DNA of 33,633 bases, taken from the IMG/VR virus record IMGVR_UViG_2529292906_000021. The stretch is one strand, 5' to 3'. Source of the stretch: a virus (taxonomy: Duplodnaviria > Heunggongvirae > Uroviricota > Caudoviricetes). The notes beneath the pieces were generated by a model. The model was not told the origin of the DNA. It did no database searches and saw nothing but the letters and a program-made list of their open reading frames with translations. Below are positions 4,363 to 21,981 of the stretch, one piece after another (position 1 is the first letter of the stretch; every line of letters starts with the position of its first letter). The position numbers and the translations under genes are program-made.

Positions 4363-4933
4363 TATCGCGTCCTCAACAATGAATTTTGTGATGCAGTGCC
4401 TGGTGCCTCCAGGTGACGTTAACCAGTTAACAATTAACGCCGGGTTAGTTGATGCTCGTTACGCCCGTAAAATACCGCCTTACTGCTTTAACTGTTCCGC
4501 GTGCGCATAGCCGCATTCACCGCATCACAAAATTCACTTTAAAAAGGGCGGCAGAGCAGTCACGGAGTAAAACTGATACCGCCAAATGTCACCAGAAAAT
4601 TGATAACAGAGGGCGTTGTAGCGGGGTTGTCACTTAAGCGTATGGTCAACCTGACAACCCGGTGCATTTTCTGGAGCAATGGAGGAAACCCCAGCCATAC
4701 TTACCGCCGCGCCATTTCGCGGAGTGCCACAACCGGAAGCGCACGGTCGAACTAAATTTAACGACACCGTACAGAGAGACCAATTTCGCCGTGCGCTTTC
4801 GCGTTATGCCCTGACTTTTCAGGGACATATCCTTTCAGTAAGCTGTCAGTGCCGGATGCTCACCCGTGTCCGGCGCACGCACTCCACCTGACCCGTGGAG
4901 AACTCCTTAATTACCAACCCTCAGGAGGGTGAA

Positions 4934-18752: not shown

Positions 18753-18828
18753 GGCCCTTTAGCTCAGTGGTGAGAGCGAGCGACTCATAATCGCCAGGTC
18801 GCTGGTTCAAATCCAGCAAGGGCCACCA
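18753..18828 (+). tRNA. ileZ: tRNA with CAU anticodon (Ile2/lysidine type, ileZ-like)
   Basis: 76 nt with cloverleaf and 3' CCA; anticodon loop CUCAUAA; close to my recollection of E. coli ileX. Confidence 0.8.
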
Positions 18829-18835
18829 TCACATA

Positions 18836-18912
18836 CCGCCATTAGCTCATCAGGAAAGAGCGCCAGCCTTCGAAGCTGGTCGCGCGGAGTTCGGGTCCCC
18901 GAAGGCGGTCCA
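18836..18912 (+). tRNA. argN: tRNA-Arg (anticodon UCG), argN-like
   Basis: 77 nt; acceptor stem with one mismatch; anticodon loop CUUCGAA; 3' CCA present. Confidence 0.65.
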
Positions 18913-18925
18913 TTATCTGTATCCT

Positions 18926-19002
18926 GCGTTGTTAGCTCAGCCGGACAGAGCAATTGCCTTCTAAGCAATCGGTCACTGGTTCGAATCCAGTACAACGCGC
19001 CA
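18926..19002 (+). tRNA. argO: tRNA-Arg (anticodon UCU), argO-like
   Basis: 77 nt; acceptor GCGTTGT/ACAACGC; D-loop AGCTCAGCCGGA; anticodon loop CUUCUAA; T-loop GGTTCGAATCC; 3' CCA. Confidence 0.8.
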
Positions 19003-19017
19003 CACTTATTTTCCCTG

Positions 19018-19041
19018 GCTCGCTTTTGCGGGCTTTTTTTT
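19018..19041 (+). terminator. Rho-independent terminator after the tRNA cluster
   Basis: GCTCGC-TTTT-GCGGGC hairpin followed by an 8-T run. Confidence 0.6.
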
Positions 19042-19047
19042 AAATGT

Positions 19048-19262
19048 CTCACAATTCAGGCGGTTGACTGTTGTCTGGTTTGCGGGGAGTTTGTTAAAAG
19101 AAACTGGCATGGTGAATCCCCCTGTGCGGAGGGGCAATCAGCGAGTAGGTATATGGGATAATCGCGGATTCAGGTGCTGGTACTGAATTCACCGGGAGGC
19201 ACCCGGCACCATGCAATGGCACATAGCGCCACTCTCCAGCCCCTCTCCGGAGGGGCTTTTCT
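19048..19262 (+). repeat. Copy 1 of a ~215-235-bp paralogous element ending in an intrinsic terminator (candidate small RNA unit)
   Basis: Shares with copy 2: CTCACAATTCAG…TTGAC…ATGGTGAATCCCCCTG(T/A)GCGGAGGGGC…TCACCGGGAGGCACCCGGCACCATG…GCCCCTCTCCGGAGGGGC + T-run. Confidence 0.5.
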
Positions 19263-19451
19263 GTGCCGGATACATCACAGTTTCTGGAACCTTAGGTACT
19301 ACAGTATCAGTCAGGGTGCTATATTTTCAGATGTGATGAAAGCCTGTCAGCAGGCAGGGCGTATCGGAAATGACCCAGTAGAGAAAACGTTGACTCAGAT
19401 ACCGGTGCTGAGTTACCGGGAAACCGGCATCACATGACCGCTATCCTTCCA

Positions 19452-19478
19452 GGCCCATCCGCTCCGGTGGGCCTTTTT
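19452..19478 (+). terminator. Rho-independent terminator preceding element copy 2
   Basis: GGCCCA-(10 nt)-TGGGCC hairpin followed by TTTTT. Confidence 0.5.
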
Positions 19479-19515
19479 ACTGCAGAAAACAGGTTCCCCG
19501 TTAAATGCTATGTTG

Positions 19516-19749
19516 CTCACAATTCAGTAAGTTGACAGTTGCCTGTCAGACTGGGCATTTGTTAAAAAAATTTCGCATGGTGAATCCCCCTGAGCGGAGG
19601 GGCGACTGGTGACGGTATAATCTCTGATTATCAAAACGAGAATGACGCGGGTTTAGTGGCACCGGACTGAACTCACCGGGAGGCACCCGGCACCATGTGC
19701 ATGATGATACAGATACGCGGCTTTAGCCCCTCTCCGGAGGGGCTTTCTT
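19516..19749 (+). repeat. Copy 2 of the paralogous element (candidate small RNA unit)
   Basis: Same conserved blocks and identical terminal hairpin GCCCCTCTCCGGAGGGGC + TTTCTT; contains TTGACA and TATAAT hexamers, though not at canonical spacing. Confidence 0.5.
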
Positions 19750-19977
19750 ATGGACAAAAAAAGCCCGCGCTGGGAGACGCGGGCGGCAAGGAATAAACAA
19801 TAAAACGTGAAGTAATATTTCAGCTGGCGAATAATACCCCATAGTAATCACTCTGCGCAACTGCGCGGTCTTTTTCGAATTGCGGGCTGTAGTCTCCCTT
19901 CTGCCATTGTCCTGTAACTTCCGGACTTCAGCCTGCTCCTTATCTGACTCACAACATTATCCCGCCCGGGAGGATTC

Positions 19978-21831
19978 ATGGCATTTAAACACTATGACGT
20001 GGTCAGGGCGGCATCGCCGTCAGACCTTGCGAAACGACTGACACAAAAACTGAAGGAGGGCTGGCAGCCGTTTGGTAGTCCGGTGGCCATAACCCCTTAT
20101 ACCCTGATGCAGGCGATTGCAGCAGAAGGTGATGTGGTCGTCAGTGGTGCAACTGAGCCGGAGTGGTACTACGTCATCGTACTGGCCGGGCAATCCAATG
20201 CCATGGCTTACGGTGAAGGGCTTCCGCTTCCGGATTCATACGATGCGCCCCATCCGCGCATTAAGCAACTGGCCCGTCGTAACACAGTGACTCCCGGTGG
20301 TGAAGTATGCGTATTTAACGACATCATTCCTGCTGACCATTGTCTGCATGATGTTCAGGATATGAGTACGATTAACCATCCCCGGGCTGACCTGAGCAAA
20401 GGGCAGTACGGCTGTGTCGGACAGGGCTTACATATTGCCAAAAAACTGCTTCCGTATATCCCTAATAATGCGGGGATCCTGCTGGTACCATGCTGTCGTG
20501 GTGGTTCGGCATTCACCCAGGGCACGGAGGGGACATTCAGCGAGTCCACGGGAGCCAGTCAGGATTCGGCTCGCTGGGGAGTGGGTAAGCCGTTATATCA
20601 GGATCTGCTTTTCCGCACGAAGGCAGCATTGCAGAAAAACCCGAAAAACGTTTTGCTGGCGATATGCTGGATGCAGGGGGAATTCGATATGACGAATGCC
20701 AGTTACGCCCAGCAGCCAGCAGCATTTCTTGCAATGGTACAGCAGTTCCGTGCTGACCTTGCCGGGCTGGCAGCGCAGTGTCACGGTGGAAGTCCGGCAT
20801 CAGTCCCCTGGATTTGTGGCGACACGACATACGCGTGGAAACAAGAACACGGTACGCAATATGAAGTGGTATATGGTGCATATAAAGGTAAAGAATCCCA
20901 GCAGATTTATTTTGTTCCCTTTATGACCGATGGTAGCGGAGTTAATACACCGACAAACAACCCGTCAGAAGATCCTGATATTGCCGGGTCTGGTTATTAC
21001 GGTTCGGCATCCCGAACGAACAAAAACTGGGTATCATCAAATCGCCCGACGCATTTCAGCTCATGGGCGCGTCGTGGCATTATTCCCGATCGTATGGCAA
21101 CTGCTATTCTGAACGTAGCCGGTCGCACCTTAGCCTTCATTAGTGGTAAGGCACCGGAAATCAAACCCTCGCCCGGCGGCGACACGCCATTGGGGCCGTC
21201 TGAAGATGCATCCATACGCACAATCTCCCTGTTGCCGACAGCCGGAGACGCTGCTGCGCAGGGCTGGAGCATTAAGAATGGCGGAATTCAGTTGTCAGAT
21301 GGTGTATTTAAGATCACCAAGCAGAGCAATAAAGCCTGGTCCCTGACGCGCCCGGTGGATGACGCAGTCTCCCTGCTGACACGGGGTGGCAGACTGAGCT
21401 GTAAGTTTCGACTGTCAGGCGCACTGACCAACAATCAGTTCGGTCTGGGAACTTATCTGTATACCGATGTAGCGTTACCTGACGTCGTGGCGATGACCGG
21501 GACTGGTAACCCGTTCCTGATGTCGTTCTTCACCCAGACCACAGACGGCAAACTGAATCTGATGCATCACAAGAAAGCAGGAAACACAAAGTTGGGGGAG
21601 TTTGGCGATTACGGTAACGACTGGCAGACGCTGGAGCTGGTGTTCACCGCCGGCAGTGCCACGGTTACTCCGAAACTGAATGGAGTGGCTGGCCCGGCAT
21701 TCCAGGTCATAAAAGACAGTCTGACACTGGGGCTGAATGCGCTGACGCTGACGGATGTTACAAAAAATGCAGCGTATGGCGTTGAGATAGAAAGTCTGGT
21801 GCTGGAGATAAATGCACCGGCATCATCATAA
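19978..21831 (+). CDS. nanS: Prophage sialate O-acetylesterase (NanS-p-like, SASA/DUF303 family)
   Basis: 617 aa; N-terminal esterase region with …VIVLAGQSNAMAYGEG… (GQSN motif of SASA-type esterases); located downstream of the tRNA cluster and upstream of lysis genes, as for nanS-p in Stx-type phages; RBS GGGAGGA. Confidence 0.75.
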   Translation: MAFKHYDVVRAASPSDLAKRLTQKLKEGWQPFGSPVAITPYTLMQAIAAEGDVVVSGATEPEWYYVIVLAGQSNAMAYGEGLPLPDSYDAPHPRIKQLARRNTVTPGGEVCVFNDIIPADHCLHDVQDMSTINHPRADLSKGQYGCVGQGLHIAKKLLPYIPNNAGILLVPCCRGGSAFTQGTEGTFSESTGASQDSARWGVGKPLYQDLLFRTKAALQKNPKNVLLAICWMQGEFDMTNASYAQQPAAFLAMVQQFRADLAGLAAQCHGGSPASVPWICGDTTYAWKQEHGTQYEVVYGAYKGKESQQIYFVPFMTDGSGVNTPTNNPSEDPDIAGSGYYGSASRTNKNWVSSNRPTHFSSWARRGIIPDRMATAILNVAGRTLAFISGKAPEIKPSPGGDTPLGPSEDASIRTISLLPTAGDAAAQGWSIKNGGIQLSDGVFKITKQSNKAWSLTRPVDDAVSLLTRGGRLSCKFRLSGALTNNQFGLGTYLYTDVALPDVVAMTGTGNPFLMSFFTQTTDGKLNLMHHKKAGNTKLGEFGDYGNDWQTLELVFTAGSATVTPKLNGVAGPAFQVIKDSLTLGLNALTLTDVTKNAAYGVEIESLVLEINAPASS

Positions 21832-21981
21832 AAAGTGAGCCAGCCAAATGGAAGGTATCGTTAAACTCACCGGTAGTGTCAGTGGGTCGTCTGAGATGCC
21901 TGCATGAGTTATCAGAGCCATCAGTACTTAACTGGTGGCTTTTTTTATTGTTGTCAGCTTCCGGATAACGGGAGACGGGGT

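Follow-up and report, generated by a model that had tools for sequence, protein, structure and literature searches.

A cluster of STnc100-family small RNA genes with a convergent partner between the tRNA genes and the nanS-p-type esterase gene of a toxin-less lambdoid prophage

The DNA analyzed here is a virus record from IMG/VR (IMGVR_UViG_2529292906_000021; Caudoviricetes), a stretch of 33,633 nucleotides that we call the window, and our subject is the 975-bp gap at positions 19003-19977 that separates its tRNA genes from the open reading frame (ORF) of a nanS-p-type esterase. On the upstream side, three ileZ/argN/argO-type tRNA genes, Met/Ile2 (CAT), Arg (TCG), and Arg (TCT), occupy 18753-19002 on the plus strand; they are supported by ARAGORN, by the Rfam tRNA model, and by the RefSeq annotation of the 99.9% identical locus in E. 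coli 042. The tRNA operon ends in an intrinsic terminator at 19017-19041 (+; hairpin 19017-19034 followed by T8), seen in the terminator scan and in an alignment with the Sakai prophage Sp5. On the downstream side, the gene for a 617-aa carbohydrate esterase of the SASA family (19978-21831, +; ORF list and RefSeq annotation of the 042 locus) forms a conserved boundary. RefSeq places an antiterminator, a hypothetical gene, a DNA methyltransferase, and the tRNAs upstream of the gap in E. coli 042, and the esterase, holin, lysozyme, Rz, and terminase downstream of it, which is the late region of a lambdoid prophage. An earlier note on this DNA, made from the sequence alone, had given the gene order as Q, methyltransferase, ileZ-argN-argO, nanS-p, and lysis genes, and had reported neither toxin genes nor a convincing ORF in the gap. 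The 042 annotation agrees on the order and on the absence of toxin genes, and the five ORFs found on the two strands of the gap are without a Pfam match. What the region does contain is an excess of terminator-like sites (10, vs 1.5 expected from shuffles), including four plus-strand terminators in series between PR' and nanS-p. In all likelihood, the gap is a cluster of small RNA (sRNA) genes within the conserved late-region backbone of lambdoid (Shiga toxin [Stx]-type) prophages, with units A, M, and B on the strand of PR' and one convergent sRNA gene opposite them.

Units A and B are the two paralogous elements that the earlier note had described, and they are real. Their pairwise alignment gives 77% identity overall, and a direct-repeat finder resolves blocks of 88 nt (19048-19135 vs 19516-19603; 80% identity) and 32 nt (19182-19213 vs 19666-19697; 97%) as well as a terminal 22-nt hairpin that is identical in both copies (19238-19259 and 19725-19746). 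Each copy has an intrinsic terminator ahead of it, as the note had also seen (19017-19034 plus T8; 19451-19474 plus T5), and the two share TTAAATG (at 19040 and 19501) and TCACAATTCAG (at 19049 and 19517). An Rfam scan identified both as RF02076 (STnc100), with E-values of 4e-30 and 1e-37, far beyond chance. The curated gathering threshold of this model is 47 bits; unit A scored 136.3 bits (19078-19268, +) and unit B 165.4 bits (19546-19755, +), each over model positions 1-206. As full-length matches above threshold, units A and B are therefore members of the curated sRNA family STnc100, and their cmscan alignments follow the RF02076 consensus structure.

The gene of unit A (19042-19262, +) is supported by the Rfam match, its fold, the promoter geometry, and primer matches. 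It has the leader box TCACAATTCAG at 19049-19059, an extended -10 element, TGtTAAAAG, at 19092-19100, and a core at 19107-19214 composed of helices P1 (19107-19114/19207-19214), P2 (19118-19134), P4 (19166-19173/19183-19190), and P5 (19192-19206), with pseudoknot strands at 19137-19142/19176-19181. A variable segment (19215-19237) and the terminator (19238-19257 and a U-run) complete it. The published STnc_100 quantitative PCR primers match unit A exactly, at 19108-19127 and 19181-19200 (published amplicon, 93 bp), and unit A is thus the allele that they amplify. Unit B (19481-19755, +), which rests on the Rfam match, fold, promoter geometry, and phage alignment, has the same layout: leader box TCACAATTCAG at 19517-19527, extended -10 TGtTAAAAA at 19560-19568, core at 19575-19698 (P1 19575-19582/19691-19698, P2 19586-19601, P4 19649-19656/19667-19674, P5 19676-19690), pseudoknot strands at 19606-19611/19660-19665, variable segment at 19699-19724, and terminator at 19725-19744 with a U-rich tail. 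Unit B is near-identical to the unit downstream of stx2 in the Stx2a phage and to the unit of phi296. The single unit of phi296/TL-2011a (phi296: locus L003, 2859-3107) has a leader like that of A, a center like that of B, and a pre-terminator segment like that of A. It looks as if this unit arose by recombination between array units, or the array by the reverse event.

That the two elements might be small independent transcription units, candidate sRNAs, was the right suggestion: both are full-length members of a family whose homologs are transcribed in uninduced lysogens, bound by Hfq, and detected on northern blots. Expression, Hfq binding, transcript sizes, and the position of the PasD seed are all taken from published work on these homologs. 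In O157 Sakai, the moron insertion site downstream of PR' was found by Tree and colleagues to hold "convergent sRNAs" (PMC4104026), with EcOnc27 on the PR' strand and AsxR (EcOnc02) opposite it, 3' of stx2B, and the same organization in seven other prophages. EcOnc27 gave northern bands of ~235/247 nt, the 247-nt species was destabilized in the absence of hfq, and an Hfq peak was seen by cross-linking and cDNA analysis (CRAC) (PMC4104026); its 5' end lies close to the stx2B stop. EcOnc27 is STnc100 and is also sRNA103 of EDL933, and variants in it are predictive of hemolytic uremic syndrome (HUS) (PMC12711010). In EDL933, high-level transcription of all 11 STnc100 copies was seen without induction, northern blotting confirmed one of them, and most had low ribosome coverage in ribosome profiling (PMC5331693). 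STnc_100 was also found in outer-membrane vesicles of Stx-producing E. coli, with one copy 75 nt downstream of stx2 (PMC12370729). In enteropathogenic E. coli (EPEC), PasD1 and PasD2 are Hfq-dependent RNAs of 172-173 nt whose chimeras, detected by RIL-seq (ligation and sequencing of interacting RNAs), fall in the 3' ~50 nt (PMC8550237); a recent preprint places them as distant STnc100 relatives directly upstream of an esterase gene (bioRxiv 10.64898/2026.05.13.724894). We considered whether the window units could be PasD alleles and rejected this, as their pre-terminator segments differ and P5 is intact in A and B in the alignment.

The earlier note described a duplication with two copies. The paralogy of A and B stands, but the array has three units, the supposed spacer at 19263-19480 being a diverged third copy, and a convergent minus-strand sRNA gene follows; because unit M and this gene join units A and B, the locus is a four-gene sRNA cluster. 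Unit M (19263-19480, +) is supported by a sub-threshold Rfam match, by alignment with A, B, PasD2, and EcOnc27, and by its minimum free energy (MFE) fold. Under a relaxed threshold it matched RF02076 over the full model span (19307-19480) with 30.1 bits, which is below the 47-bit criterion; for comparison, PasD2 scored 41.4 bits. In the alignment, M stays in register with A, B, PasD2, and EcOnc27, with each conserved hairpin swapped for a different self-complementary sequence. It carries TCACA at 19275-19279, an extended -10 element, TGcTATATT, at 19317-19325, P1 at 19333-19338/19428-19433, P2 at 19342-19355, P4 at 19392-19398/19408-19414, P5 at 19416-19427 with a GAAA loop, pseudoknot strands at 19362-19367/19402-19407, a variable segment at 19434-19450, and a terminator at 19451-19474 with a U-run; the terminator seen ahead of copy B is thus unit M's own. 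Every helix of the fold is kept, the MFE fold has the same four helices as those of A and B, and the pseudoknot duplex, at -6.3 kcal/mol, ranks 2 of 88. The invariant loop sequences of P2 and P5 are absent from M. A second variant of M (loci L025 and L119) has changed stems in P2 and in the terminator that are still complementary.

Facing the array from the other side is a convergent sRNA gene of the EcOnc08/21/42 type (19756 to ~19938, -), supported by the terminator scan, identity to EPEC PP6, RIL-seq coordinates, and a Sakai probe match. It ends in a strong terminator stem (19784-19763) with U7 at 19762-19756, which faces the terminator of unit B (19725-19744), so that the two form a convergent pair. 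The stretch shares 93% identity with the EPEC PP6 locus of the RIL-seq sRNA "E2348C_1409.E2348C_1408.IGR" (NC_011601, 1444797-1444978, minus strand), which its authors equated with Sakai EcOnc08/21/42 and for which they reported the target motif GGCAAGG. The predicted seed of that RNA, single-stranded CCUUGCC, is complementary to this motif and is kept in the window (complement of 19785-19791). The Sakai northern probe for EcOnc08/21/42 (~271 nt) matches at 30 of 35 positions (19830-19864). The 5' end is uncertain, at ~19938 by projection from EPEC or at ~20026 for a length of 271 nt, that of the Sakai RNA; the longer form would be antisense to the ribosome-binding site and start codon of nanS-p. 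A promoter-like sequence, ATGCCA-17-GATAAT, lies at 19984-19956 on the minus strand. Identity with AsxR or AgvB was rejected, since neither model matched at an E-value of 1 or less in 18950-20000, while Sp5 and 24B give 88 bits; Rfam matches to OmrA-B (25 bits), Ysr49, and anti-hemB were far below threshold and were taken as chance. Within this gene, just upstream of nanS-p, the terminator scan found a further plus-strand, terminator-like hairpin, CTGCGCAACTGCGCGG with a T-run (19853-19877), that is kept in five of five aligned phages; it may be a plus-strand terminator or part of the minus-strand RNA.

The part of the plus-strand units that is conserved across genera is the ~105-nt core, and not the leader, the variable segment, or even the terminator. 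The core consists of an 8-bp closing helix, P1; a hairpin, P2, with a UNNGC loop; a hairpin, P4; and a hairpin, P5 (CCGGG-AGGCA-CCCGG), that abuts the 3' strand of P1; the UNNGC loop of P2 and the AGGCA loop of P5 are invariant. The structure was tested on 96 cores less than 85% identical to one another. In the derived structure, 86.3% of cells were paired, vs 40-46% when the 3' partners were slid by one to three columns, and none of 500 shuffles equaled the real alignment in pairing, covariation score, or count of compensatory pairs. Pairing stood at 92-99% in P1, P2, the outer part of P4, and P5, where single positions showed as many as five or six pair types. Folded separately, A, M, and B each gave the same four helices at minimum free energy, with z-scores of -1.7 to -2.1 that leave out the pseudoknot energy.

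This pseudoknot is of the H type, the segment directly 3' of P2 being complementary to the P4 loop. A pseudoknot is not encodable in a covariance model, and it is absent from the Rfam model. On a plain MAFFT alignment only 57% of its cells were paired, because the loop is misaligned there; a local G-INS-i alignment recovered the four central pairs in 75-82 of the 96 cores, with alternation between CG/UA/UG, AU/GC, GC/AU, and CG/UA. In an alignment-free test, the mean energy of pairing between the post-P2 segment and its own P4 loop was -8.15 kcal/mol, vs -4.30 with the loops of other cores and -3.45 with its own loop shuffled, and 10,000 permutations of loop assignment included none as good. 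The pseudoknot is kept in A (-8.6 kcal/mol), B (-8.8), M, the second M variant (-6.9), and PasD2 (-8.7). The 2026 preprint from the Storz laboratory (bioRxiv 10.64898/2026.05.13.724894) mentions neither a pseudoknot nor tandem arrays.

The position of the array relative to stx is where our result departs from the earlier note, which had the elements occupying the stx slot and possibly deriving from the stx leader. Rfam matches in related phages show the same element downstream of stxB, with the toxin present too. In Sp5 of Sakai, an STnc100 unit (207.7 bits) begins 75 nt past stx2B, with the convergent AsxR directly behind it; 24B has the same arrangement; the Stx2a phage has one unit after the toxin; and the Stx1c phage has two tandem units after stx1B. 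In the toxin-less phi296, one unit directly follows the tRNAs. Comparison with the stx flanks of Sp5 found no match from the cassette: the two align through the terminator of the tRNA operon, past which Sp5 continues with the stx2 promoter and stx2A, and the window is rejoined at the TCACAATTCAG leader. The stx2AB cassette of Sp5 is thus inserted between the tRNA terminator and the unit's leader, and the empty cargo site in the window is a single junction at ~19041-19047. The Stx2a phage and phi296 are nearly identical to the window in the stretch from copy B to nanS-p. As judged from these alignments, the repeated elements are part of the backbone that coexists with the toxin in Stx phages, and neither a toxin substitute nor a relic of its leader; derivation from the stx leader was rejected on the boundary alignment.

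The whole 1.4-kb stretch, at a coverage of at least 80%, was present in 330 of 5,426 complete E. coli genomes (~6%), mostly at an identity of at least 99%, and parts of it were present in 3,338 of them. The full array in one piece was found in no deposited phage genome. A unit-M-specific motif occurred in 79 IMG/VR contigs, and a profile search recovered the order canonical-M-canonical in ~77-80 of 200 IMG/VR loci, with M there always between two canonical units. A degenerate core pattern places the family in Salmonella, Klebsiella, Enterobacter, Citrobacter, Kosakonia, Pantoea, Erwinia, Raoultella, Leclercia, Kluyvera, Cedecea, Superficieibacter, and others, often as two to five adjacent cores. 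Head-to-tail series of three to five cores, spaced 120-260 nt apart, occur in genomes of Superficieibacter and Pantoea and on a single Pantoea plasmid (L224 6325-7007, L225 898-2069, L248 6352-7050, L255 4089-4787, and L245 88-1635), and the tandem arrangement is therefore a general habit of the family and no peculiarity of the window. Genuine STnc100-type cores also sit on short contigs (L241, L244, and L258) of metagenome-assembled genomes labeled Mucilaginibacter or Proteobacteria, which are most likely mis-binned enterobacterial prophage DNA. Four motif matches outside Enterobacterales (L238, L240, L247, and L268) had no profile match and were taken as chance hairpins.

Each of the three plus-strand units is probably its own transcription unit. 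A, M, and B are all flanked by terminators on both sides, and a search by hand found an extended -10 element (TGn and an A/T-rich hexamer) 7-8 nt ahead of the first base of P1 in all three, the sequence of M being unrelated. The RNA-seq-mapped 5' end of PasD2 (741157; PMC8550237) falls, in the alignment, on the first base of P1. If transcription likewise started at the first base of the core, the predicted RNAs would be ~156 nt (A), ~147 nt (M), and ~176 nt (B), each comprising the ~105-nt structured core, a single-stranded variable segment of ~25 nt, and an intrinsic terminator with its U-tail. In all three units, a TCACA box is located exactly 54 nt upstream of the start of P1, as part of a CRP-like TGTnA-N6-TCACA (19038-19053, 19264-19279, and 19506-19521) that matches 9/10 in the consensus of 63 units and 7-8/10 in the window. 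A CRP-like site centered at -61.5 from the putative start would be in the classical class I position. This is speculative and, the left half-site being weak, is kept as no more than a lead; the 11-nt leader box is conserved beyond what a CRP half-site needs.

Across 63 unique full-length units, the core, the terminator, and the leader boxes TCACAATTCAG, GTTGA, and TTTGTTAAAA were at least 95% conserved, and the least conserved part was the ~25-nt segment between P1 and the terminator. This segment comes in discrete alleles (56 parsed units have 20 variants); A and B do not share an allele, and neither has that of Sp5. Because it is least conserved, allelic, and homologous to the PasD segment that carries the predicted seed and the RIL-seq chimeras with many mRNAs (PMC8550237), we infer that the pre-terminator segment is probably the seed, and A, M, and B would then have different target sets. 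By analogy with the homologs, the RNAs would be made in the lysogen, bound and stabilized by Hfq, and would work in trans through base pairs with mRNAs of the host and of prophages. The seed would most likely be the variable pre-terminator segment, different in each unit, and the pseudoknotted core most likely a stabilizing scaffold.

Compared with known systems, the units are closest to STnc100/EcOnc27/sRNA103, with which they share the full RF02076 model, the strand, the core, the terminator type, and the position after PR', tRNA genes, and moron and before nanS-p. The window differs from the EcOnc27 locus in having three tandem units and no stx genes, and the EcOnc27 probe matches the pre-terminator segment of the window at only 17-18 of 35 positions, the Sp5 allele being different. 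PasD1/PasD2 of EPEC E2348/69 (EcOnc13 of Sakai Sp3) are likewise directly upstream of sialate esterase or lysis genes, share P1, P2, P4, and the pseudoknot, and have a seed just 5' of the terminator and a dependence on Hfq. However, in these distant relatives P5 is not intact, the leader and seed (UGUGAG) are other ones, and the copies are reported as dispersed, whereas the window units are in tandem. In the convergent pairs of Tree et al. (2014) at the PR' moron site, too, a PR'-strand sRNA faces an opposite-strand sRNA between the moron site and a conserved downstream ORF, but the window has three plus-strand members and nothing in the moron slot. AsxR and AgvB (RF02703 and RF02702) hold the same convergent minus-strand position directly after STnc100 in Sp5 and 24B but are 51-60 nt long, and the minus-strand RNA of the window is of the longer, ~180-270-nt EcOnc08/21/42 type.

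Multi-copy sibling sRNAs with a shared scaffold and divergent seeds are known from OmrA/OmrB, PrrF1/2, and Qrr1-5. Like these, the window units are adjacent paralogs that each have their own putative promoter and their own terminator and differ in a short segment, a likeness also discussed in the 2026 preprint (bioRxiv 10.64898/2026.05.13.724894); unlike them, the window genes are phage-borne, and the shared part is a large pseudoknotted domain.

Several observations weigh against reading the units as independently transcribed, trans-acting sRNAs. A simple sigma-70 scan of the region found no plus-strand promoter, and the extended -10 hexamers of A and B are without the canonical T at position 6; with the generic scan empty and the extended -10 elements found by hand, the promoter assignments therefore remain inferred. 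EcOnc27 is ~235/247 nt, with its Hfq peak over the A-rich leader, vs the ~147-176 nt expected from a P1 start. It may therefore be that the 5' ends are located upstream or are products of processing; a second start could lie near TCACAAUUCAG, ~55-60 nt upstream of P1 and ~7 nt after a TTAAAT/TGTAAT box, and both forms may exist. The RefSeq annotation of E. coli 042 has no RNA gene at the locus, and functional reports on STnc100 comprise overexpression effects on fimZ and espA (PMC12711010) and a predicted 11-nt match to stxB (PMC12370729), with no target validated by compensatory mutations. Unit M could be a decaying copy, because its invariant loops are lost and its score is below the Rfam threshold. 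Finally, a pseudoknotted core with invariant loops in many genera is over-elaborate for a seed-carrying sRNA and hints at an additional or other function.

Taken further, that hint would make the ~105-nt core functional in itself, its four-way junction and pseudoknot binding a protein or ligand or mimicking a tRNA-like substrate, with Hfq-dependent pairing secondary or absent. The rich covariation across many Enterobacterales genera in which the leader, variable segment, and terminator are not conserved would suit this, as would the two invariant loops and the conserved pseudoknot, the way in which P5 abuts the 3' strand of P1 like a T-arm on an acceptor stem, and the tandem core arrays in Pantoea, Superficieibacter, Enterobacter, and Leclercia; the PasD2 5' end exactly at the base of P1 is compatible with endonucleolytic processing too. 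However, ARAGORN finds just the three upstream tRNAs, the Rfam tRNA model has no match inside the units at an E-value of 1 or less, and the only likeness to tRNA is the four-helix topology, so that a tRNA-like gene was rejected. Homologs are among the most abundant Hfq-bound RNAs, the 3' segment of PasD forms chimeras with many mRNAs, PasD is functional in RIL-seq although its P5 is not intact, and no candidate for a partner protein is consistently encoded beside the units in the window. We regard a core that acts on its own as unlikely, though worth serious consideration. We are similarly doubtful of its broadest form, that the core is a modular RNA domain, a pseudoknotted four-way junction widespread in Enterobacterales prophages, with a tRNA-like topology, two invariant loops that unit M has lost together, and its own partner or activity, that arrays are a scaffold for grafted seed cassettes, and that M is a third, undescribed subfamily beside STnc100 and PasD.

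The units could also be a cascade of terminators and structured spacers acting in cis, which would silence nanS-p and the lysis genes in the lysogen until Q-modified polymerase read through, the sRNAs being by-products that arise when tRNA, stx, or PR' transcripts are terminated or processed. Such a function needs no 105-nt covarying pseudoknotted core, and it sits poorly with the high transcription of homologous copies in EDL933 without induction, with an extended -10 at a fixed distance from the core even in the diverged unit M, and with the abundance of PasD, which has neither tRNA nor stx genes upstream. We find the cascade improbable, even though the four serial terminators, the constant placement of units between the Q/PR'/moron region and the nanS-p/lysis genes, an EcOnc27 that is longer than a P1-start transcript and begins near the stx2B stop, and the lack of a canonical plus-strand promoter in the sigma-70 scan speak for it. 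A neutral origin of the array, by local duplication and inter-prophage recombination with only one functional unit and M as a decaying pseudogene, seems quite improbable. Single-unit versions do exist, the phi296/TL-2011a unit resembles an A/B recombinant, M scores 30 bits without its invariant loops, and prophage late regions are highly mosaic (bioRxiv 10.64898/2026.05.13.724894). Yet M retains P1, P2, the pseudoknot, P4, P5, a strong extended -10, and a terminator, the stems of its second variant have changed while staying complementary, the A-M-B order is kept in ~330 complete genomes and ~80 viral contigs, and the different variable-segment alleles of A and B fit non-redundant functions.

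We give almost no credence to the region encoding small proteins. ORFs of 33-87 aa do occur on both strands (an 87-aa GTG ORF at 19174-19437, an antisense 42-aa ORF that is a RefSeq pseudogene, and ORFs of 35-45 aa), and hypothetical proteins that overlap the element or run antisense to it have been called by RefSeq and by phage annotators. But these ORFs have no Pfam match and run through terminator hairpins, indels of 1, 3, 7, 12, and 15 nt between the copies break the frame, conservation follows base-pair covariation and is not codon-like, and ribosome coverage of most EDL933 STnc100 copies is low. As to the annotations themselves, RefSeq has a partial pseudogene, "hypothetical protein," antisense to unit A (19097-19222, -; L001 6398-6523) and no RNA gene, and phage records have small hypothetical ORFs over or antisense to STnc100; these are probably annotation artifacts.

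Some further features of the same prophage lie outside the cluster. The 150-nt spacer that separates the esterase gene's stop from the start of the holin gene (21832-21981), which is the position of PasA, PasC, or EcOnc51/52 in other prophages, contains a strong hairpin with T7, GAGCCATCAGTACTTAACTGGTGGCTTTTTTT, at ~21915-21947. This could be another sRNA allele or merely the esterase terminator; blastn of the spacer against the PasA region of E2348/69, as a search for PasA/PasC, matched the flanking coding ends only. Elsewhere, matches above the Rfam gathering threshold were found for sok, the hok/sok antitoxin RNA (12190-12365, +; 117 bits), and for DicF (4546-4597, -; 77 bits).

The family, its Hfq dependence, the stx-adjacent position, and the convergent arrangement have all been published, the architecture itself as early as 2014 (PMC4104026), and the finding is therefore already known. 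Worth noting as increments that do not change this are the diverged third unit, the recurrent three-unit array in toxin-less prophages, the pseudoknotted and widespread core, and the promoter geometry. While the finding as stated adds little, RefSeq leaves abundant, virulence-associated sRNA genes unannotated, sometimes under spurious ORFs. Variants in this element downstream of stx2 have been linked statistically to HUS outcome (PMC12711010), and a better structural model of the RNA is therefore of some practical value. The family core extends far beyond E. coli and Salmonella with a well-supported pseudoknot, which raises the question of what role the scaffold plays. For E. coli, a toxin-less prophage found in ~6% of complete genomes carries three sibling sRNA genes with different putative seeds and a convergent partner, and it could rewire host regulation in ways unlike those of Stx phages.

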